NCBI GenBank assembly: GCA_041666945.1 | Contig: JBAYFY010000002.1 | Location: 129,076 to 193,075, forward strand | Direction: 5' to 3' | DNA: 64,000 bases | DNA from: Candidatus Buchananbacteria bacterium | GTDB taxonomy: Bacteria; Patescibacteriota; Patescibacteriia; 2-01-FULL-39-33 | Shown here: piece by piece, positions 11,858-22,720 of the stretch | Numbering within the stretch: the first letter of the stretch is position 1 | Layout: every line of letters starts with the position of its first letter | Notes under the pieces: generated by a model | What the model saw: only the letters and a program-made list of their open reading frames with translations | The model's database searches: none | What the model was told of the DNA's origin: nothing | Program-made: the position numbers and the translations under genes

Positions 11858-12646
11858 TTAGCAAGCAGGCGCGCTTTCCAAAACGTATTTGGCCCAATTG
11901 ATGATTTTGGCTTCACCCAAAAGGTCTTTAATTTTTTTACTGTCGTCTTTAATGAAAACTTGGTTAAGCAGACAGTTTTCTTCGTAAAACTTATTTAATT
12001 TGCCTTCAATGATTTTATCCCAGATTTGTTCGGGTTTGCCTTCGCCCTTGAGCTGTTCGCGATAAATTTCTTTTTCTTTTTCTATCACGGCGACATCAAC
12101 GGCAGACGGTTCCAGCCAGCGCGGGCTCATAGCGGCAATTTGCATGGCAATATCATTGGCCAGCGCTTCAGTCCCGCCGGTTAAAACGCAAATGCCAGCC
12201 ACTTTGCGGTTGGCGTGGATATAATGCCCCACAATCTCGCCTTCGTAAACGCCAAAACCGGAGAGTTGCATGTTCTCCCCCACTTTCATTACCAGTTCTT
12301 TGAGTTGGCTTTCCGCCCAAGCTTTAAATTCTTCCGGCTGGGAAACCAAAAGCTTTGCCGCAAAATTTTGAACGGTAGTACGGAAATCGTCGGTGCGGGA
12401 GACGAAATCGGTTTCGCAAGCCAACGCCACAATGGCGCTTTTTTTGCTGTCGCCGGAAACGGCAATGACGCCTTCCTTGACGGCGCGGTCGGCTTTTTTG
12501 GCGGCTTTAATCTCGCCTTTTTTCCGCATGATTTCCACGGCTTGTTCCAGATTGCCGCCTGCTTCTTCCAAAGCGGCCTTGCAATCGCCTAAACCGGCGC
12601 CGGTTTTTTCGCGGAGTTGGGAAATGAGCTTGACGTCTATGGACAT
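11858..12646 (-). CDS. tsf: Elongation factor Ts
   Basis: MSIDVKLISQLREKTGAGLGDCKAALEE... UBA-like N-terminus plus EF-Ts core. Confidence 0.9.
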   Translation of the reverse strand: MSIDVKLISQLREKTGAGLGDCKAALEEAGGNLEQAVEIMRKKGEIKAAKKADRAVKEGVIAVSGDSKKSAIVALACETDFVSRTDDFRTTVQNFAAKLLVSQPEEFKAWAESQLKELVMKVGENMQLSGFGVYEGEIVGHYIHANRKVAGICVLTGGTEALANDIAMQIAAMSPRWLEPSAVDVAVIEKEKEIYREQLKGEGKPEQIWDKIIEGKLNKFYEENCLLNQVFIKDDSKKIKDLLGEAKIINWAKYVLESAPAC

Positions 12647-12703
12647 ATGATAAAAGTTTAAAATCTATTTAAGAGCTTAAAAACCTGAAAACTAACGTTG
12701 TGA

Positions 12704-13411
12704 TTAATTTTTAGTTTTTTCCTTATCCTGCCTCACTTTGCCGAAATTAATGGCTTCGGCGATAACGCGAGTTATCAGGTCAATTGAATTGATGGCGTCG
12801 TCGTTAGCCGGAATCGGATAAGTGAACAGATCGGGATTGATATTGGTATCGCACGGCCCGATAATCGGGATTTTGCGTTTTTTGGCCTCTAAGACCGCGG
12901 TTTTTTCGCGTTTGGCGTCAAGAATAAAAACCGCTTCAGGCAAGCGATTCAAATTTTCCAGTCCGCCGACCATTTTGTCCAGGCGTTCTATTTCTTTGCT
13001 GATCATCACTTGTTCTTTTTTGGTGTATTTGGCCAGGGCGCCGGAATCGCGCTGTTCTTTCAGGGAGCGGTATTTTTTTATCAGTTTTCCGACATTGGCA
13101 AAATTAGTGAACAGCCCGCCGACCCAGCGTTCCTTGATGTAAGGCATGCCGGCTTGTTGGGCGTATTTTTCAATCAACGGTTTGGCTTGGCTTTTGGTGC
13201 CGACAAAAAGAATGTTGCCGCCGTTCTCGCCGATTTTTTCGGCGAACTCGGCCGCTTCTTTGAGTTTGGCCAAAGTTTGCTCCAAATCAATGATATGGAC
13301 TCCGTTGCGTTCGGCAAAGATGAACGGTTTCATCTTGGGGTGCCAGCGGCCTTTCTGATGGCCGAAGTGAACTCCCGATTGCAGGAGTTCCATTAATGTT
13401 GGTAAATTCAT
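12704..13411 (-). CDS. rpsB: 30S ribosomal protein S2
   Basis: LLQSGVHFGHQKGRWHPKMKPFIF... Confidence 0.9.
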   Translation of the reverse strand: MNLPTLMELLQSGVHFGHQKGRWHPKMKPFIFAERNGVHIIDLEQTLAKLKEAAEFAEKIGENGGNILFVGTKSQAKPLIEKYAQQAGMPYIKERWVGGLFTNFANVGKLIKKYRSLKEQRDSGALAKYTKKEQVMISKEIERLDKMVGGLENLNRLPEAVFILDAKREKTAVLEAKKRKIPIIGPCDTNINPDLFTYPIPANDDAINSIDLITRVIAEAINFGKVRQDKEKTKN

Positions 13412-13622
13412 AATTTTTCCTTTCTTTCTTTGCAGCCCTTAATCCGCGGCTAAGCCGCAGATTGGCCCGATTTTGGTTGGTCTTAATATTACGGGCAAGG
13501 ATTAATTCGGGGCTGTTGTTTATTAGTAAAAATGTATTAAAAGATTATCATAAATCGGCGGATAAGTCAAATCTTTGATTAAAAATTAATGATGTCTGCC
13601 CTGTCACGGAGCCGCTTTAAAT

Positions 13623-13650
13623 AAAAAAGCCACTCCTTAGCGGGAGTGGC
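13623..13650 (-). terminator. Intrinsic terminator after paralog A
   Basis: GCCACTCC-ttagcg-GGAGTGGC followed by T6 on minus strand. Confidence 0.6.
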
Positions 13651-13675
13651 GGTAAATGAACGGTTTTGGCCCTGG

Positions 13676-14998
13676 TCAGTTGCTTGGCCAATTTTTGTCG
13701 GCCGGCCACTCGGTGATGTAAACACCGTCAGTCATGAGGCCGGCTTCGCTTAGACGCAATTGCGTGTTTAAGGAAATAACTTCAATAATGCGTCTTCTAT
13801 GTTGCGACAGCTCCTCCGACATGCCGGCCATAATACTGCCGGCGCTCTCCATTCCCGGGTTGGCAAAAACAGAACAAGTCGTTTCCGTCGGCAAACATTC
13901 AGCCAGCGCCGCTACGGCCTCTTTTTTAATAATGTCAATGAGATACTCTTCAAGTTTTTCCTGCCGCTGGAAAACTATAAGATTCCTCAAATAATCTTCA
14001 TCTCTGGTTAGAGCGTAGCTGGCGGCCAATCTCAACTTACTTTCGCCGAGCGACGCTTCAACCGCCAAATCATTTTTGGCGGCGGCTATGCCCTGGGCGT
14101 ACTTTTTGGTGAACAGGTTGACGAATCTGTGATTATAAGTCAGCAATTCATCGTTGCCGTTGAGGGCGAAACGTCTGTAAAATTCCCCGTCGGATCGGTT
14201 GACAAGAATAATCGAACTACTTTTACTATTTAAATTACTGCTTAAATATGACGGGGTTTTAAAAGTTATAAAAATTGACATAACAAGAATTGCAATGAAA
14301 AATGCCATAACCGCCGGCTTACCCTTGTTGTCTGTTACGGAATCCACTATCCCAGCTATTATTACTGCTAGCAACAAAATACAGAGTATTAAAATGCATA
14401 CTTCAGCCATATTCCAGAAAAACCCTGATAAGAAAAGCAAATAAATTACCATAGCGATAGCGGCAATGATTATGCCCCAGGGAATAATTGCCTTCCAAAT
14501 AAAATACAACAGATCTTCACCATTTTCGCAGAACCAATTTTTTATTCCCTTGGCTATCAGGGCAAAGCCGCAGAATAGCCAGCCCAAAATCAGGCCGATA
14601 GGGCTGAAGATTTTCTTTAATGTTTGCATCGTCTTGTTGGGCGGTTTTAGCAACGCTCTGGCCTGCGACAAACTGACGATTTTGTTGGATATCAATGAAG
14701 CGATCAACCTTTCATATCGCGAGTTCAAAGACGGCAGAAGTTCAGCTTGCCAATCAGTTCCCGTGGCTAAGTAGAATAACGTGAGTCCCAGCTGGTGGAA
14801 AGATTCGCGCACATCCTTGACCGGAGTTGCTTGGCCGTAATCGACTTTATTGTCATCATCAATAAAAATATTTCCCGCTTCATACCTAACTAATTCTCTT
14901 TTTTCTTTCAGGCGCGTTTCTATGTCTTTCAACAGTTCCGAGACAATGACATATAACAAGTCATCGCCCAATTTGACTTCGTAGCGTTTCTTTCCCAT
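13676..14998 (-). CDS. Paralog A of a tandem family: N-terminal kinase-C-lobe-like domain, TM segments, C-terminal soluble domain
   Basis: 440 aa; shares N-terminal FIDDD...LGLTLFYLATG...LLKPP block and central TM cluster with the two downstream genes. Confidence 0.5.
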   Translation of the reverse strand: MGKKRYEVKLGDDLLYVIVSELLKDIETRLKEKRELVRYEAGNIFIDDDNKVDYGQATPVKDVRESFHQLGLTLFYLATGTDWQAELLPSLNSRYERLIASLISNKIVSLSQARALLKPPNKTMQTLKKIFSPIGLILGWLFCGFALIAKGIKNWFCENGEDLLYFIWKAIIPWGIIIAAIAMVIYLLFLSGFFWNMAEVCILILCILLLAVIIAGIVDSVTDNKGKPAVMAFFIAILVMSIFITFKTPSYLSSNLNSKSSSIILVNRSDGEFYRRFALNGNDELLTYNHRFVNLFTKKYAQGIAAAKNDLAVEASLGESKLRLAASYALTRDEDYLRNLIVFQRQEKLEEYLIDIIKKEAVAALAECLPTETTCSVFANPGMESAGSIMAGMSEELSQHRRRIIEVISLNTQLRLSEAGLMTDGVYITEWPADKNWPSN

Positions 14999-15276
14999 GG
15001 CGCTGTTCTCCTTTATGGTTGTGTAACAGTCGTTCCGGTTAAAGTTTAAGGCCCAAATTGTAAAGTGCTTGTTAGCTGTGTAACAATATGGCAGGTTAGC
15101 ATGATTTTATAAGAATGTCAAATAGCGCAACAGAATATAGCCCCGGGCAAGCCCCGGGGTAATAGTGGAACTTGCGTACTAACAGCTCGGCAAGCCGAGC
15201 AGTATTTGACTATATTGGCGTCGCTCGCTCGGAATCCAGCGCTTTGAAGCGCTGGTTCGCTCGCTTACTAGCCAAT

Positions 15277-15305
15277 AAAAAAGCCACTCCCCTCAAGGAA
15301 GTGGC
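15277..15305 (-). terminator. Intrinsic terminator after paralog B (near-duplicate of the 13623 terminator)
   Basis: GCCACTCC-cctcaa-GGAAGTGGC followed by T-run on minus strand. Confidence 0.55.
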
Positions 15306-15379
15306 GGTAATGAACTGTGTTATTTGGTTTCTCGTTCAGCCGTTATTTTGGCTGCCGGACCGAGTGAATCGCAGAGCGC

Positions 15380-16873
15380 CTATTTCCCGAGCGTCTCCCC
15401 TAATTTTCCCGACTCCTTGATTTCAATGTAGTTGTATTGATCCTTGAATTGTTCGCGCAGCCGGTCTTGGATATCAGCCATAATTTTCTGGCGTTGCTTC
15501 ACCAGCAAAGTTTGCCGTCGGGACAAGAGTTCGTTTCTGACCAGACGGACGGTAACTTCGCGTATGACCTGGTAATCATTCTTTGATAATGTGCCATCCG
15601 CGCCTTTAGCTTCAACGGTTATGCCGTTAAGTTCTTGTTCAATCGCCGCGCGGGATTTAATGGGAGTATCGCTTTCGGCCATAGCTTTTATGGTTGCGGC
15701 TTGGCCGGCGACAATCAGCTCTTGCTCCAAATCGGCTTGCGTTTGCTTGTTTTTCATCATCCGTTTCCAGTCGTTTTCAAATGTCGCCTGGTCGGTGATG
15801 GCATACTTGATCCAAAAGCAAAATTTTTCCCCGTCTTCCTTCTCGGCCAGCGGCGCTTCTACCAGGATGTCCTCGCGTTGGGTAATTATGCCCGGCGCGT
15901 AACTCCTGACAAATAAATTAACGCATCTACCTTCGTAATGCGGAATGTAGTTCCGGTCGTTTGCGTCAGCTATTCGGCCGATCAAATTTCCGCTGGAACG
16001 GTCAACTACCACTAAGGGATTGAGCTGGATATCAGCTGTCGGGGCCTCAAAGATTTCATAAACTGAAAGAGAGGCAACCAAGATTAAAAAGATGATCCAG
16101 CCCCAAAAAATACAATCGTCCTCACATGTGCCATCAGTAATGATGTGTAATATCATTACTGATACAGCCCCCAACATAATGGAGACAGTTATAATTAATA
16201 AGCCGCAACCGATGGTCATCGGACCGCCGAAATAAATAATATTGACAAAAGCCAGACAAATGAACGAGGCAATGGCGACAATAATCAGCGCTATATACAT
16301 AATCAACGTGAATTCACGTTTTATGAATTTCAGGAATTTCACCGCTTTGGCCGCGGCCTTTTTTGTTTGCGAATAAACGTTGCCGGCATTAATCCTTAGC
16401 CATTGAAAAGCCATGACCGCTCCCCGACCGATTAAAGCAACGAGCCAAAGCATGGCTATGGCTGTCAGCGTCAAAATCCGGTCGCCGAATTTTTTTATGG
16501 CTGTCGGCGGTTTGAGCATGGCTTCCACTTGAGGCAAGCTGGCCGCCGATTGCGACAAGAGCAGCTCAAGAAGCGGCCACAGTTCCGATTCAAACGGCTT
16601 ATAAACGAAATTGCTCTTGTTGTAGGTTGATTGGCCCGTGGCCAAGTGATACAAAGCGACGCCTAAAGCGTAAAGCCCCTCGCTAACGCTGTCAACGGTC
16701 TTGATTTTACCTGAGTCCTCGTGGCAAACTTTGCCCGCGCTATTGATAAAAATATTTTGCGGATCAAAGGCAATGTAAATGCCATTATCCGTTTCTTTCT
16801 TAAAGCGCTCAAAAATAAATTGAGCAACTTTCCATAAGTCGCCATCAAGCATCAATCTGCCTGTTTTTTTCAT
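15380..16873 (-). CDS. Paralog B of the tandem family (start probably the MKKTG Met whose ATG overlaps the upstream stop as ATGA)
   Basis: FDPQNIFINS...LGVALYHLATG...MLKPP N-terminal block, TM cluster, VVDRSSGNLIGRIAD motif. Confidence 0.5.
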   Translation of the reverse strand: MKKTGRLMLDGDLWKVAQFIFERFKKETDNGIYIAFDPQNIFINSAGKVCHEDSGKIKTVDSVSEGLYALGVALYHLATGQSTYNKSNFVYKPFESELWPLLELLLSQSAASLPQVEAMLKPPTAIKKFGDRILTLTAIAMLWLVALIGRGAVMAFQWLRINAGNVYSQTKKAAAKAVKFLKFIKREFTLIMYIALIIVAIASFICLAFVNIIYFGGPMTIGCGLLIITVSIMLGAVSVMILHIITDGTCEDDCIFWGWIIFLILVASLSVYEIFEAPTADIQLNPLVVVDRSSGNLIGRIADANDRNYIPHYEGRCVNLFVRSYAPGIITQREDILVEAPLAEKEDGEKFCFWIKYAITDQATFENDWKRMMKNKQTQADLEQELIVAGQAATIKAMAESDTPIKSRAAIEQELNGITVEAKGADGTLSKNDYQVIREVTVRLVRNELLSRRQTLLVKQRQKIMADIQDRLREQFKDQYNYIEIKESGKLGETLGK

Positions 16874-18372
16874 GACGTTTCTCCTGTTGTGATTTGGCAT
16901 GCCGGTTGAAGCCGCGTGATTTGGATTTGGCACAAAAGTCCCTGAAAGTTGTCGGCCAGCGAAGCCGTGATCAAGTCGCCGATTTTTGGCGCCGCTTGTT
17001 GGAATTTGCCGTTGTACAAATTGATCAACGCGTTCCGAGCGCGGCAGTCAGCTTGATCTTGAACGGCCTCGATCTCTTCCGCTGACAACAAGCCGTCAGG
17101 ATCCTTGATTGACACTTCCAAATCGGCGAGCTTTTTACTTAATTCAGACCCCAAAGGCATTTCGTTTCCCACTTGTTCTTTTATCGCCTGACTTTGCCTT
17201 AACAGGCAATCCGCAATGGCTGTTTTAACCTCATCGTCCGTTTTCCAGATTTTTGAGGCCGCGTCGTAGGTTTGGCTTAAGCTGTAATAAATGGTTGCCA
17301 CGCCGATTTCTTCGCCCGCTTCCGGAGTGCCGGTGGCGCAGAAAAGCGGAATCACTACTGCGCATTCGGGACGCAAGCCGAAAGCCGGTTTATACTTGAA
17401 CGGATTAATGAAAGTATTGGTAAATTGCTTGCCCTCTGAAACGTCAGTGGCCAGCGAGCCGCAATATTGGCCGGTTTGGCGGTTGACACAGATTAAATTG
17501 TCCGGGGTTTTGTTATCCCTAGTACAGTATGATAGCGGATTGAGAAAAGACATGACGGTTATAGTAACAAAAAAAACCGTTTCAAAAGTGAGTAGGCCGA
17601 TATTCAACCCCCAATCATAATTACTGGACATATCTGCGGTCATCGCGCCGCCAAAAACACCCAAAAGTATACTGATAAACAGTGCGAACACAAACATAAA
17701 AAACACGCTGCCTGCTATTTGATAATAGCTAATATTTAATCCGATATACCATTGGCAACTTAATACTACCAGAACGCCCACTATAAAGTAACAAATCTTA
17801 AGCCAGTGCTGTTTTAGCCGTTTAATCTGTCGGGCCAAGTGCTGCCGGATCAAGCATTTGTTTATAAATCCGACTGAACCGTTGATCGCCTTTTGGCCTT
17901 GCGCCGCCAGCAGAGGCAGAAGCCCCCACAGCCCGCCGATAATCAGACAGAGCCAGTTTACCAGCGGTTTGGTTTTTCGCGCCAGTTTTTTTATTCGGCT
18001 GGGCCGGATAAGCAGTTCCTCGATCTGTTTGAAACTGACCGCTTGCCCGGACAACAATAATTCCACCAGCGGCCACAAATCCGATTTAAACGGTTCATAG
18101 CGGGCGTCTTCGGCGCGCAAAGTCGGATCGTTTATTTCTGATTTGCCCGTAGCCACGTGATACAGAGTAACGCCCAATGAATGAAGCGCCTCGCGAATGT
18201 TTTTGATCCGCGTCGTCGGCAAAGTGTCATAGACGACTTGCCGGCCGCTATCAATGAATATCGTATCCGGATCAAAGCATAATATCGCGCCATTGTCCGC
18301 CGCTTCGCGCAACATTTTAGTCAAAGCTTGCGCGATGAGAAACAAATCTTCTTCCCGTTGCCAGATTTCCAT
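16870..18372 (-). CDS. Paralog C of the tandem family
   Basis: FDPDTIFIDSGRQV...LGVTLYHVATGKSEI...LLIRP N-terminal block, TM cluster, CVNRQTGQYCGSLATD motif. Confidence 0.5.
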   Translation of the reverse strand: MEIWQREEDLFLIAQALTKMLREAADNGAILCFDPDTIFIDSGRQVVYDTLPTTRIKNIREALHSLGVTLYHVATGKSEINDPTLRAEDARYEPFKSDLWPLVELLLSGQAVSFKQIEELLIRPSRIKKLARKTKPLVNWLCLIIGGLWGLLPLLAAQGQKAINGSVGFINKCLIRQHLARQIKRLKQHWLKICYFIVGVLVVLSCQWYIGLNISYYQIAGSVFFMFVFALFISILLGVFGGAMTADMSSNYDWGLNIGLLTFETVFFVTITVMSFLNPLSYCTRDNKTPDNLICVNRQTGQYCGSLATDVSEGKQFTNTFINPFKYKPAFGLRPECAVVIPLFCATGTPEAGEEIGVATIYYSLSQTYDAASKIWKTDDEVKTAIADCLLRQSQAIKEQVGNEMPLGSELSKKLADLEVSIKDPDGLLSAEEIEAVQDQADCRARNALINLYNGKFQQAAPKIGDLITASLADNFQGLLCQIQITRLQPACQITTGETS

Positions 18373-18466
18373 GAGTTCTCCTTTGGCCTTTTGGGCCGTT
18401 TGCTTGCTGATTCAATCAATGTTTTTAAATTTTCAAGGTTCCAGTCCGGTTACTTCCGGAATACAA

Positions 18467-18529
18467 AATCTTAGCATATTTTAGATAAAATGTCAATATG
18501 TTGACATTTTGGCTAAAATCAGATATAAT
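18467..18529. promoter_or_regulatory. Back-to-back divergent sigma70 promoters sharing a perfect palindrome AAAATGTCAA-tatg-TTGACATTTT
   Basis: Plus strand TTGACA (18501-18506) -17- TATAAT (18524-18529) for rpmE; minus strand TTGACA (18491-18496) -18- TAAGAT (18467-18472) for the paralog C/B operon. Confidence 0.55.
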
Positions 18530-18562
18530 TAGCCATATTATCAATTAACGTATTAAGCGTTT

Positions 18563-18865
18563 ATGAAAAAAGATGTCCATCCCCAGTATTTTACCCAAGC
18601 TAAGGTTATCTGCGCCTGCGGCAATGTTTTTAATGTCGGATCAACCCGTGAGGAAATCCATGTTGAAATCTGTTCCGCCTGCCATCCGTTTTACACCGGC
18701 AAACAAAAATTAGTGGATACGGCCCGTCGCGTTGACAAATTCGTCAAGCGCGCTGAAGCCAAGTCCGTTAAAGCCGGAGGCAAGAAAGTCAAAAAGGAAA
18801 AACAGAAAGCCATCAAGGCGGCCAAAAAAGCCGAGCAAGAAGGAGTTAAAATAGTCAAAAAATAA
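18563..18865 (+). CDS. rpmE: 50S ribosomal protein L31 (zinc-ribbon type) with Lys-rich C-terminal tail
   Basis: [10 protein letters not shown]...CACGNV...[10 protein letters not shown]. Confidence 0.9.
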
Positions 18866-18959
18866 CTGTGCTAATAAAGGACTCGTTATTATTGGCGAGT
18901 TCTTTTATTTTTATGTATAATTAGAGCAGATGAAGCGTGTAAGACGTAACAAGCAATAC

Positions 18960-19030
18960 GTAATGAGTAACAGGTAATTGTTATTTATTTTACTTATTAC
19001 TTATTACTTTGTTACTTATTACGTATTATC
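18960..19030. repeat. Short tandem TTATTAC(T/G) repeats
   Basis: tacttattacttattactttgttacttattacgtattatc; same motif recurs at 61363-61395. Confidence 0.6.
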
Positions 19031-19037
19031 ATAATGT

Positions 19038-20108
19038 ATGCAAGATAAATTGCAACAATTGCAAATCAGATTTGAGGAATTAGAGCGCCTGCTGCAGCAG
19101 GACGCGGTGATTAATGATCCCGCCAAAATCAAAGAAGTGTCGCAGGAGTACGATGATTTAAAGGAAATTATCGCCGCCAAAAAAGAATTGGACAAAGTCA
19201 GCGCCGAATTAATCGGCGTAGAAAAAATGCTGGAAGAAAATAAAGACGATCAGGAATTATATAAAATATCACTGGAAGAAAAAACCGCTTTGGCGCGGCA
19301 GAAAGAGGAAGCGGAAAAGTTGATTAAGTCGCTGTTAGTCCCCAAAGATCCGGCCGACAAAAAGAACGTGATTGTGGAAATCCGCGCCGGCGCCGGCGGC
19401 GATGAAGCGGCGTTGTTTGCGGCCGAGCTGTTCCGCCTGTATAACCGCTACGCGGAAAGGCATAATTGGAAAGTCAAATTGATTTCCGACAATCGCATCG
19501 GCCTTGGCGGATTTAAAGAAGTGATTTTTGAAATTACCGGCAACGGCGTTTACGGCCGATTGAAGTTTGAAAGCGGCGTGCATCGCGTTCAGCGCGTGCC
19601 CGAGACCGAGAAGAAGGGCCGCGTGCATACTTCCACTGTTACAGTCGCTGTTTTGCCGGAAGTGGAAGAAGTGGATATGAGAATAGAACCCAAAGACCTC
19701 CGCATTGATACTTTTTGCGCCGGCGGCCACGGCGGCCAGTCGGTTAATACCACTTATTCGGCCGTGCGCATCACCCACTTGCCCACCGGACTGGCGGTTT
19801 CTTGCCAGGACGAACGCAGCCAATTGCAGAATCGGGAGAAGGCCATGTTGGTTTTGCGTTCCCGTTTGTACGACTTGAAACGCCAGGAAGAAGAAGCCAA
19901 GCTCTCCGCCGCGCGCAAATCGCAAATCGGCACGGGCGACCGAAGCGAGAAAATCCGCACTTACAACTTTCCCCAGGATCGCATTACCGATCATCGCATC
20001 AACGAGAATTTTTCCAATATCCCCGGCATCATGGATGGCGATTTGGACAGGATTTTGGATCAACTGAAAGAATTTTACGATGTCCAAGCCATTAACGGCC
20101 AGGAATGA
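19038..20108 (+). CDS. prfA: Peptide chain release factor 1
   Basis: GGQ motif ([11 protein letters not shown]), PET (PxT) tripeptide, RF1 domain order. Confidence 0.85.
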
Positions 20109-20167: not shown

Positions 20168-20767
20168 TTAATGGCGGTTATCGGCGCTGTCGGGTGAATT
20201 TTTCCGCGGCCGGAGCTGAATGGCATCATCAAGTTTTAAGCGTTTGCGCGTAGGTTGACAATGCGCCACCAGAAGCAGCGCCCGGTTGCTTTCCAGCCGG
20301 CTTCCCCAACGCAACTTACACAGTCCAATGAGATATTCGGCATGGCCGTCCTGAAACGCCGGCGACTCGTGAATGGCTCGGAGCGGGCGCCATTTCTCGT
20401 CAGTCAGAATTAAAATGCTGTTTTTGTAAGGCGAGACGCGGAAAAGACGGATAAGATAATCAATTTTTCCGGCATAGTGCATTAGCGAGAATAACCACAT
20501 CCAGTATTGATGGGACTCGTCGTCTTGAATCGGTTCATTGCTTAGGCGACAAGTCATAGCCACAGCCGGCGGTAGTTTGAATTCTTTTATGAGAATTGAA
20601 CGCGGGATTTTGGCATAATTAATGCTGGTAAGGCACAGGGCTGATTTTATTTCTCTGCTTGGCTGTTGGCCGGTTGCCCTGGCCTCCCAAAATTCAACTA
20701 TGGCCTTCAGATAACCACTAATAGTTTGCCTGTATTCCTCAAGGGCGTCACTGCAACCGCAAGACAT
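20168..20767 (-). CDS. Hypothetical protein
   Basis: 199 aa ORF between prfA and prmC on opposite strand; no recognisable motif. Confidence 0.35.
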   Translation of the reverse strand: MSCGCSDALEEYRQTISGYLKAIVEFWEARATGQQPSREIKSALCLTSINYAKIPRSILIKEFKLPPAVAMTCRLSNEPIQDDESHQYWMWLFSLMHYAGKIDYLIRLFRVSPYKNSILILTDEKWRPLRAIHESPAFQDGHAEYLIGLCKLRWGSRLESNRALLLVAHCQPTRKRLKLDDAIQLRPRKNSPDSADNRH

Positions 20768-22561: not shown

Positions 22562-22720
22562 AGTAAAGGTTAATTCGTAATAACCAGGTTACTTTAGCAT
22601 TAAATTATTTTTTTGTCAAATTAACAATGCCTGATCGCCCATACGACAAATAAACTGTTTTAGAGCAAGAAAAAAAGCCCCGCTAATTGGAGCTTTATTT
22701 GGTTTGGTAAAAGGTGCTGA

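Follow-up and report, generated by a model that had tools for sequence, protein, structure and literature searches.

Three tandem Patescibacteria membrane proteins with a probable non-catalytic, KIND-like kinase C-lobe domain at the N-terminus

Within the window, that is, the whole stretch of 64,000 nucleotides (64 kb) analysed, three consecutive genes designated A, B and C encode membrane proteins whose N-terminal domain (N-domain) is predicted to adopt the fold of a kinase C-terminal lobe. The reading that we favour, and consider probable, is that the three proteins form hetero-oligomers in the membrane and carry a docking domain that resembles KIND and has no catalytic activity, and that they belong to a rare Patescibacteria family. 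The genes and their neighbours are listed below.

16870–18372, minus strand: paralog C, 500 aa, first gene of the C-B operon (ORF and translation); N-domain about 17998–18372, hydrophobic block about 17545–17964, C-domain about 16918–17517 (N-domain and C-domain HMM matches)
15380–16873, minus strand: paralog B, 497 aa counted from the ATG at 16873 (the ORF extends up to 16933 at most); N-domain about 16499–16873, hydrophobic block about 16058–16477, C-domain about 15407–16030
13676–14998, minus strand: paralog A, 440 aa, predicted to form its own transcription unit; N-domain about 14633–14998, hydrophobic block about 14261–14611, C-domain about 13703–14233
12704–13411, minus strand: flanking rpsB
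18563–18865, plus strand: flanking rpmE

The preliminary description of this DNA had reported three consecutive minus-strand paralogs between rpsB and rpmE, and this was borne out by the ORF list and by pairwise identities of 22–30%, which mark A, B and C as paralogs. In BLASTP, the N-domains of the three aligned with one another at E 1e-9 to 1e-31 and the rest of the proteins at 1e-5 to 1e-14, and tblastn detected no fourth copy within the 64-kb window. The neighbouring genes are rpsB, tsf, PSP1, rpmE, prfA and prmC, and an Rfam scan of positions 12600–19200 showed no match to a known RNA. The exact paralog C protein is present on ENA contig k141_1624134. The single architecture attributed to the three proteins was likewise found: each contains a hydrophilic N-domain of about 120–125 aa, followed by four hydrophobic segments (residues 133–246 in A, 133–271 in B and 141–274 in C) and a C-domain of about 180 aa with the conserved motif [VI]x[VI][ND]RxxG, which opens as ILVNRSDG in A (residue 264), VVVDRSSG in B (288) and ICVNRQTG in C (294).

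The following expression signals were identified at the locus.

16870–16873, minus strand: ATGA shared by the stop codon of C and the start codon of B, read from the sequence, with a GGAGA Shine-Dalgarno 7 nt upstream
18468–18496, minus strand: promoter-like site of the C-B operon, TTGACA-N15-TGCTAAGAT (consensus match only)
15093–15121, minus strand: promoter-like site of gene A, TTGACA-N15-TGCTAACCT (consensus match only)
15275–15305, minus strand: intrinsic terminator after B, 10-bp stem GCCACTTCC..GGAGTGGC, then T6
13621–13650, minus strand: intrinsic terminator after A, GCCACTCC..GGAGTGGC, then T6, a paralog of the terminator after B

The overlap and its Shine-Dalgarno agree with the translational coupling of C and B that had been proposed. 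The promoter-like site of the C-B operon stands back-to-back with the rpmE promoter (18501–18529, plus strand) and occurs at the same position in the related loci L001 and L003, while that of gene A precedes a leader of about 120 nt and is kept upstream of the A orthologs in the same two loci. Duplication of a promoter, considered from the likeness of the C-unit and A-unit sites (TTGACA-N15-TGCTAA), was rejected: the pattern is also present at 22619 and 56275 and may thus simply be the promoter consensus of the genome. The near-identity of the terminators after B and A, also claimed previously, was confirmed, as GCCACTCCCGCTAAGGAGTGGC+T6 at 13629–13650 and GCCACTTCCTTGAGGGGAGTGGC+T6 at 15283–15305 are the sole two pattern matches in 64 kb, compared to a chance expectation of 0 in 100 shuffles. 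Their likeness reaches upstream into GTTCATT(T)ACC, and the same terminator type was found at orthologous positions in two related genomes (after A in L001 and L003).

To describe the N-domain, an AF2 model was built from 44 sequences, with a pLDDT of 90.3 and a pTM of 0.83. Foldseek searches with this model gave TMq values of 0.55–0.63 and the best 50 matches were all kinases; the full-length AF2 model likewise matched kinases. The model contains αE, the catalytic-loop strands, αF, αH and αI, and the predicted fold is that of a Hanks-type kinase C-terminal lobe (αE, catalytic-loop and β8-β9 strands, αF, αH, αI), as the preliminary description had suspected from a kinase-like N-terminal block. 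By hhalign, the family profile matched a kinase alignment across αF-αH (Prob 87%, E 4e-6), and the catalytic-loop segment gave a weaker colinear kinase match (P 0.11 alone; E 0.005 against a small database). Genuine Ser/Thr kinases of Bacillota, encoded next to a PP2C phosphatase gene, have a subdomain IX that reads exactly as the family motif LGVTLYHLATGKS; scanning contigs with the motif LYHLATG[KEQ]S retrieved only genuine Bacillota kinases in genomes and two loci in metagenomes. Pfam Pkinase showed no match to A, B, C or their N-domains (E<=10), nor to any of 76 family members (E<=0.01). A profile search of PDB sequences with the whole protein, the N-domain and the C-domain returned only subdomain IX of MKK4, at a non-significant E of 0.26–1.4.

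The lack of a glycine-rich loop and VAIK lysine noted earlier holds for the whole N-lobe, since these elements and the αC glutamate are absent and the AF2 model opens at the αE-equivalent helix, at residue 10. The large majority of family representatives have the N-domain starting at residue 1, and only 190 nt of promoter-bearing intergenic sequence lie upstream of C, leaving no coding room for an N-lobe. The activation segment is about 29 residues shorter.

The family comprises 73 clusters among 1.84 billion representative proteins. All of its named members are from Patescibacteria and all are annotated "hypothetical", so that the family is rare and appears confined to Patescibacteria. A word-indexed homolog search returned only 3–4 proteins even with the 44-sequence profile. 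Scans of A, B and C against Pfam, NCBIfam, PADLOC and PHROGs gave no match, and the Pfam scan of 76 family members gave no consistent one. The homologs are therefore not ubiquitous housekeeping proteins: they are rare, apparently restricted to Patescibacteria and unannotated, and their copy number varies at the locus. About half of the family are soluble proteins with the N-domain, lacking the transmembrane block and the C-domain. Family-wide, the N-domain is the most conserved part and has near-invariant, surface-independent motifs.

Many membrane-type members have only three strong transmembrane segments; A, B and C have a fourth, weaker hydrophobic segment directly after the N-domain. Summed over 34 members, the region before the core transmembrane block has 134 Lys plus Arg residues, loop 1 has 13, loop 2 has 78 and the region that follows the block has 63, and the C-domain probably faces outward on this charge pattern; it would be cytoplasmic if the fourth, weak segment spans the membrane. 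In the full-length AF2 model the C-domain has a pLDDT below 50, and the fold and helix packing beyond the N-domain are not readable. The profile search of PDB yielded nothing below E 0.69 for the C-domain, and no consistent Pfam match emerged from 21 C-domains. An SPFH/FliL-like C-domain, an idea taken from the strand-then-long-helix pattern, was discarded, as relaxed Pfam scanning of the 21 C-domains produced one FliL match (E 0.016) and no Band_7 match.

The gene neighbourhoods of more distant relatives bear on a different reading, according to which A, B and C would be membrane adaptors or components of a Cdc48/VAT/PAN-like AAA+ unfoldase machine for membrane-protein extraction, secretion or quality control, with the C-lobe domain docking on the N-terminal domain of the ATPase, in loose analogy to EssB and type VII secretion. 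We regard this reading as possible but unlikely. In all four of the more distant membrane-type contexts examined, a conserved module lies directly beside the family gene or the tandem pair; it is made up of a protein of 169–195 aa, one of about 68–71 aa, usually one of 59–85 aa, and an AAA ATPase of 807–990 aa. The small proteins are homologous between loci, and among solved structures the ATPase is closest to VAT/p97/Cdc48. Furthermore, P0069 contains a stretch of about 375 aa with homology to the ATPase N-terminal region (E 1e-27), and the C-lobe domain follows it in place of the AAA core. However, neither the AAA module nor a homolog of its small proteins was found in the 64-kb window or in the fetched flanks of the close relatives L001, L003, L009 and L011, the association is limited to distant members at 20–25% identity, adjacency does not amount to interaction, and no WXG100-like or FtsK-like type VII secretion gene lies nearby. 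A bolder version, which we think quite improbable, would make the C-lobe domain a bacterial counterpart of KIND and the membrane docking adaptor of a new Patescibacteria Cdc48/PAN-like AAA+ machine with three small conserved proteins, in which tandem pairs would form the transmembrane part and the ATPase module would lie elsewhere in the genome of the window lineage. A defence system, considered in view of the tandem arrays and the AAA ATPase, was rejected, since PADLOC gave no match to the family and its sole match, in the ATPase, was to a generic AAA core of the IetA-like type.

Comparison with related genomes gave a dN/dS of 0.23 for A and 0.22 for B; the value was 0.11 for the N-domain of C, and only 0.03–0.06 for rpsB and tsf. 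Identities in the same genome pairs were 56–67% for full-length A and B and 79% for the C N-domain, against 89–96% for rpsB and tsf, and non-synonymous change is about 4–10 times faster in A, B and C than in the flanking genes. Judged by these substitution patterns, A, B and C are real genes under purifying selection. In L001 and L003, the second gene is the A ortholog (75–80% identity in the N-domain, 48–61% in the rest); B has one ortholog in P0002 (64% identity) and another in the body of P0003 (66%); and the C lineage is represented by gene 1 of L011 (P0007) and, for the N-domain, by gene 1 of L003. One relative carries a chimera with a C-type N-domain on a B-type body. The subsets of the A, B and C lineages that are kept differ between related genomes, and distant relatives keep orthologous tandem pairs. 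On these orthology assignments, A, B and C are three anciently diverged lineages that have been differentially retained. Hence, of the tandem expansion put forward in the preliminary description, the tandem paralogs and the copy variation at the locus stand, the latter as a survey of a few loci rather than a broad one, while a recent expansion does not.

These rates also bear on the proposal that the fast-evolving C-domain is the functional part, a surface adhesin or host-recognition domain of an episymbiont, with the kinase remnant as a folding or anchoring stub and with paralogs and swaps giving surface diversity. The rapid non-synonymous change, the lower conservation of the A body compared to its N-domain, the differing copy content and chimeric gene among close genomes, the positive-inside pattern favouring an outward C-domain and the restriction of named members to Patescibacteria all speak for it. 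Nevertheless, dN/dS is well below 1, giving no sign of diversifying selection at the whole-gene level, the strongest conservation lies in the N-domain, which argues for a function of its own, about half of the family is soluble, and adhesin-like repeats and known surface domains are absent. We therefore hold this proposal to be rather doubtful.

The catalytic residues were inspected in the 44 sequences. The column of the catalytic Asp (HRD) contains Asp in none of them, the catalytic-loop Asn column contains Asn in seven and the DFG Asp column contains Asp in two, the equivalence of these columns being approximate because it derives from weak colinear HMM alignments and not from residue-level structural superposition. 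The absence of Asp at the positions aligned to the catalytic Asp and its rarity at DFG make canonical phosphotransfer by the N-domain very unlikely, as far as alignment can tell. The family does not conserve the "D..P.N catalytic loop" that had been pointed out in B and C; its consensus at this place is FPPExI, implying a non-catalytic remnant and not a degenerate enzyme. It could still be imagined that the three proteins are active kinases of an atypical kind or nucleotide-dependent enzymes that bind ATP in trans, through another polypeptide or a paralog interface (a split kinase), given that B and C keep a D-P-x-N/T string, that B has D-S-G at the DFG-aligned position and that pseudokinase folds have repeatedly turned out to have unexpected activities, as reportedly in SidJ; but these residues are lost even in orthologs of A and B, no N-lobe-like ORF was found nearby, a kinase HMM finds no kinase in the 64-kb window and the Pkinase and Asp counts above are against it, so that we give this reading hardly any credence.

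In the favoured reading of A, B and C as docking proteins, the C-lobe remnant would serve as a cytoplasmic protein-docking module, by analogy with the eukaryotic KIND domain and the EssB pseudokinase, and the three core transmembrane helices would tether it to the C-domain of about 180 aa. The co-transcribed, co-retained paralogs may assemble into hetero-oligomers, an idea drawn solely from co-retention and operon structure, and these would link the extracytoplasmic domain, possibly in surface or host contact, to a cytoplasmic partner. A signalling or surface system, as suggested in the preliminary description, may be involved.

Inert kinase-fold docking modules are well known in eukaryotes (KIND and many pseudokinases), with a few bacterial cases (EssB), and Patescibacteria have tiny genomes and a poorly known surface and host-contact biology. 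If the favoured reading is true, a bacterial C-lobe-only family would be an independent example of the kinase fold reused as an inert docking module, and would give a structural handle on some "hypothetical" Patescibacteria membrane proteins. Testable predictions on heteromeric assembly and partners arise from three features: tandem pairs that are conserved, the gene recombined at a domain boundary, and a Cdc48-like ATPase module that recurs beside the family genes of relatives.

Compared with the membrane-anchored Hanks-type bacterial Ser/Thr kinases YabT, PknB and PrkC, the family lacks the N-lobe (glycine-rich loop, VAIK lysine and αC helix), the HRD-aligned Asp is absent, the DFG-aligned Asp is rare, the activation segment is shortened, and neither PASTA nor any other known sensor domain is present. 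In EssB, an N-terminal cytoplasmic, catalytically inert kinase-related domain for protein–protein interaction is followed by a membrane anchor and, across the membrane, a C-terminal domain; the protein is dimeric, and its N-terminal domain has two globular lobes separated by a cleft (PMC3526858). Like EssB/YukC of type VIIb secretion, A, B and C are bacterial membrane proteins of similar size. Unlike EssB, which is bitopic and has a two-lobed pseudokinase, they have a C-lobe only and 3–4 hydrophobic segments, match no Pfam YukC model and have no type VII secretion gene (EssC-type FtsK/SpoIIIE ATPase or WXG100) near the locus, and their distant relatives adjoin a classical AAA ATPase and not an FtsK-like one. 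KIND is a kinase C-lobe without an N-lobe or catalytic residues, typically N-terminal, that acts as a protein–protein interaction module (PMC2064798, PMC11231147). The N-domain resembles it in being N-terminal and C-lobe only and in having lost the catalytic residues, and by analogy may share the interaction role. However, KIND is known from eukaryotic cytoskeleton and signalling proteins whereas this family is bacterial, with no match to Pfam KIND or any other Pfam model; the domain is shorter, at about 125 aa, with a truncated activation segment, and is fused to a transmembrane block and C-domain in about half of the family. Most likely, it arose independently of KIND, from a bacterial Hanks-type kinase.

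Genes A, B and C lie on the minus strand between rpsB and rpmE, with rpsB-tsf-PSP1 downstream on the same strand and the divergent rpmE-prfA genes (plus strand) on the other side. An AGGAGA-type ribosome-binding site was found at all three starts. The features of the interval are as follows.

18496, minus strand: promoter-like site before C, TTGACA-N15-TGCTAA
16870-18372, minus strand: gene C, ORF of 500 aa
15380-16873 (from its ATG), minus strand: gene B, ORF of 497 aa
15283-15305: intrinsic terminator after B, near-identical to that after A
15121, minus strand: promoter-like site before A, TTGACA-N15-TGCTAA
13676-14998, minus strand: gene A, ORF of 440 aa
13629-13650: intrinsic terminator after A, near-identical to that after B

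The stop codon of C and the start codon of B overlap in the sequence ATGA, in agreement with the translational coupling noted in the preliminary description, and no TTGACA-N15-TGCTAA site precedes B. Because of this overlap, the promoter-like sites before C and A only, and the terminators after B and A, two transcription units, C-B and A, are predicted. What the preliminary description recorded of the locus was confirmed in each of its descriptive elements. Matches to TTGACA-N15-TGCTAA in the window number four (22619, 56275, 18496 and 15121, minus strand), and strong promoters of this genome may usually have an extended -10 element of the TGnTAA type.

Further elements were observed around these genes. 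A hairpin-rich stretch of 157 nt (15126-15282; for example CCCCGGGGCTTGCCCGGGG and GCTCGGCTTGCCGAGC) separates the B terminator from the A promoter; it is unique within the window and absent from the shorter intergenic regions of the related loci L001 and L003. A palindrome, ATTGTTAcacagcTAACAA, lies at 15069-15087 (minus strand), approximately at the predicted transcription start of A; its arms are conserved and its loop is variable in L001 and L003 (TTGTTATatggATAACAA and TTGTTATgcagATAACAA), and the palindrome may act as an operator or form a 5' hairpin. About 210 nt upstream of rpsB (13412-13620), including TTGACTTATCCG..TGATAATCT and paired GCGG/CCGC segments, are highly conserved in L001 and L003; this region has no Rfam match and may be an S2 autoregulatory leader. 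Between prfA and prmC, a 199-aa ORF without a Pfam match (20168-20767, minus strand) is matched by a conserved ORF of equal length and placement in L001, L003 and L009.

Pairwise alignments of the three proteins span the full length at 22-30% identity, and in BLASTP by domain every pair reached significance (E 1e-9 to 1e-31 for the N-domains and 1e-5 to 1e-14 for the remainder), confirming that they are paralogs; tblastn found no fourth copy across the 64-kb window. The tripartite plan described earlier was likewise recovered in all three: a hydrophilic N-domain of about 120-125 aa, a hydrophobic block in which the Kyte-Doolittle profile peaks four times, and a C-domain of roughly 180 aa opening with the conserved motif [VI]x[VI][ND]RxxG. 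The family consensus of the C-domain is vlVdR.TGeFvaRlp...dD..l.w...fiNhFkYkvvpGlp.

Searches of Pfam and NCBIfam gave no match for A, B or C, and the isolated N-domains had no Pfam match even at E<=10. PDB sequence searches gave nothing beyond a sub-threshold match that paired the LGVTLYHLATG stretch with subdomain IX of MKK4. In the full-length model of B, residues 10-120 alone were confident, and a Foldseek search with this model showed that the top 50 matches were all kinases, PknB being the first. Modelled on its own from 44 diverse members of the family, the N-domain had pLDDT 90.3 and pTM 0.83, and its query-normalised Foldseek TM-scores against kinases were 0.55-0.63. Its secondary-structure elements follow the kinase order from αE to αI: one long helix, then two short pairs of strands, a second long helix and finally two short helices. 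Alignment of the family profile with a small kinase alignment by hhalign gave Prob 87% and E 4e-6 over αF-αH, together with a weaker colinear match pairing the family P-x-x-I-x-I...K-V with the kinase catalytic loop P-x-N-I-L...K-I; a kinase HMM matched family members through the same two segments. When GTDB genomes were scanned for LYHLATG[KEQ]S, three genuine Bacillota Ser/Thr kinases were retrieved, which are adjoined by a PP2C phosphatase gene and have DIYSLGVTLYHLATGKS as subdomain IX. The 646-aa kinases at the Bacillota loci L006:7422-9362 and L007:7422-9362, in which DIYSLGVTLYHLATGKS is identical to the Patescibacteria family motif, were matched by the family N-domain HMM at E 2e-6. 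In these kinases DIYSLGVTLYHLATGKS is, by its sequence, the family motif in its original setting. The structure prediction was decisive in identifying the modelled N-domain of A, B and C as a kinase C-lobe and nothing more.

The N-lobe of a kinase, with its glycine-rich loop and VAIK lysine, is absent. In most family representatives by far, residue 1 of the protein is also the beginning of the N-domain. The window leaves no coding room upstream, where the space is taken up by 190 nt of promoter DNA before C, the overlap before B and a terminator before A.

An exhaustive profile search over 1.84 billion representative proteins found 73 family clusters at E<=1e-3, of which 32 remained at E<=1e-10, so the homologs are not ubiquitous housekeeping proteins. 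Source names were looked up for 10 clusters; the five that carry one are all Patescibacteria (Candidatus Azambacteria, Candidatus Paceibacterota or "Patescibacteria group bacterium") and all annotated "hypothetical protein". The full architecture is present in 39 of the 76 sequences analysed, none of which gave a consistent Pfam match; the remainder carry the N-domain on soluble tails, stand-alone at about 145 aa, or with extra N-terminal domains. The family is rare, and its three-part membrane plan is a conserved one. Its genes typically stand in tandem, with pairs in L011, L012, L016/L017 and the contig of member P0009, and a single gene in L015. In L013 (1-9977), at least six soluble-type paralogs of 407-658 aa, each a C-lobe domain with a long tail without TM segments, form one tandem array beside glycosyltransferase and polysaccharide-export genes.

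At the syntenic rpmE...rpsB interval, copy content varies. The window corresponds to ENA contig k141_1624134 (assembly ERZ27249449), and L004 comes from the same metagenome. L001 (JGI, 958-kb contig) has two genes, of B and A type, and L003 and L004 have two each; the more distant L011 has C and B types directly upstream of rpsB, with the A type absent. The first gene of L003 (8001-9548; also in L004 and L005) is a chimera, whose N-domain is 78% identical to that of C and 42% to that of B, and whose body is 66% identical to B and 25% to C. The two parts meet at residues about 140-148, within the first hydrophobic segment and immediately past the N-domain; one unequal recombination event between neighbouring C and B genes of a three-gene ancestor would yield exactly such a gene. 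Since the sequences fall into three lineages in the neighbour-joining tree, arranged as (A,(B,C)), the three-copy state is old and differentially retained. The tandem expansion proposed earlier therefore holds as to the paralogs and their varying number, but not as a recent event. The GCCACTYCC..GGAGTGGC pattern matches the window only at the terminators of A and B (chance expectation, none). Both genes of L001 and L003 are again followed by a terminator of this type, one of them with compensatory changes in the stem, which fits the suggested duplication of gene together with terminator.

The dN/dS values were 0.23 for A, 0.22 for B and 0.11 for the C N-domain, compared with 0.03-0.06 for rpsB and tsf, at similar dS (about 0.7-1.5). 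Judged from these ratios, A, B and C are functional, fast-evolving genes under purifying selection. The L016/L017 pair also lies upstream of rpsB-tsf, with three glycosyltransferase genes between, and the loose linkage to rpsB is therefore old. Taken together, the loci show ancient tandem paralogs with lineage-specific loss and one domain-boundary recombinant.

In the tree, the genes of L012 and L016 cluster by position, first with first and second with second; tandem pairs are therefore inherited as pairs, the main argument for a heteromeric function. In all four distant membrane-type contexts, the family gene or pair abuts a conserved module (L012:3813-7754, L015:4441-7820, L016:2020-5849) of a 169-195-aa protein, a protein of about 68-71 aa, in most cases one of 59-85 aa, and an AAA ATPase of 807-990 aa whose N-terminal region is long and whose closest solved relatives are VAT/p97/Cdc48. 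The small proteins are homologous between loci and have no Pfam or NCBIfam match. In member P0069 (L018:343-2052), about 375 aa are homologous to the N-terminal region of the module ATPase (E 1e-27), and a kinase-C-lobe domain at residues about 380-490 takes the place of the ATPase core. Nothing of the module lies in the window or in the DNA fetched for its close relatives; it should be taken as a lead and not as a feature of A, B and C themselves. The most interesting rival explanation is a possible adaptor role for a Cdc48-like ATPase machine; a second would make the C-domain a surface adhesin.

Among 34 members, K+R residues numbered 134 in the 20 residues before the three-helix core, 13 in the first loop, 78 in the second loop and 63 in the 20 residues after the core. 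Because of this distribution and the only three strong hydrophobic segments in many members, a topology with the N-domain inside, three spanning helices and the C-domain outside is favoured. Right behind the N-domain, A, B and C each show one more hydrophobic helix, which is weaker and, in B, interrupted by Arg-Gly; if it spans the membrane, the C-domain would be cytoplasmic. No C-domain relative was detectable in Pfam or PDB searches, and its part of the full-length AF2 model is unreliable.

Across 44 sequences, weak colinear alignments place no Asp at the equivalent of the catalytic Asp (0/44; the column holds I, V, L, S, C, R, F or A), Asn in 7/44 at the catalytic-loop Asn column and Asp in 2/44 at the DFG-Asp column. 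The D-P-x-N string of B and C, read earlier as a catalytic loop, is therefore probably a lineage-specific leftover and not a conserved site. Conservation is seen instead at P38 (35/44; the proline of the catalytic loop), E65, G71, Y75, H76, G80 and W99, and the activation segment falls about 29 residues short of its kinase counterpart. Residual or split catalysis is the least likely of the rivals.

These findings support the preliminary interpretation. We propose that the N-domain would act as a docking module, by analogy with KIND, a precedent for a kinase-derived docking module (PMC2064798, PMC11231147), and the pseudokinase docking module of EssB (PMC3526858); the paralogs would assemble as hetero-oligomers, with the C-domain facing outward. 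The kinase fold as an inert module is known in principle, and its C-lobe-only form is known from eukaryotes. The Pfam, NCBIfam and literature searches found no bacterial C-lobe-only family with a membrane block inherited as tandem pairs. Pseudokinases known from bacteria include two-lobed ones such as EssB, whereas the present family has the C-lobe only.
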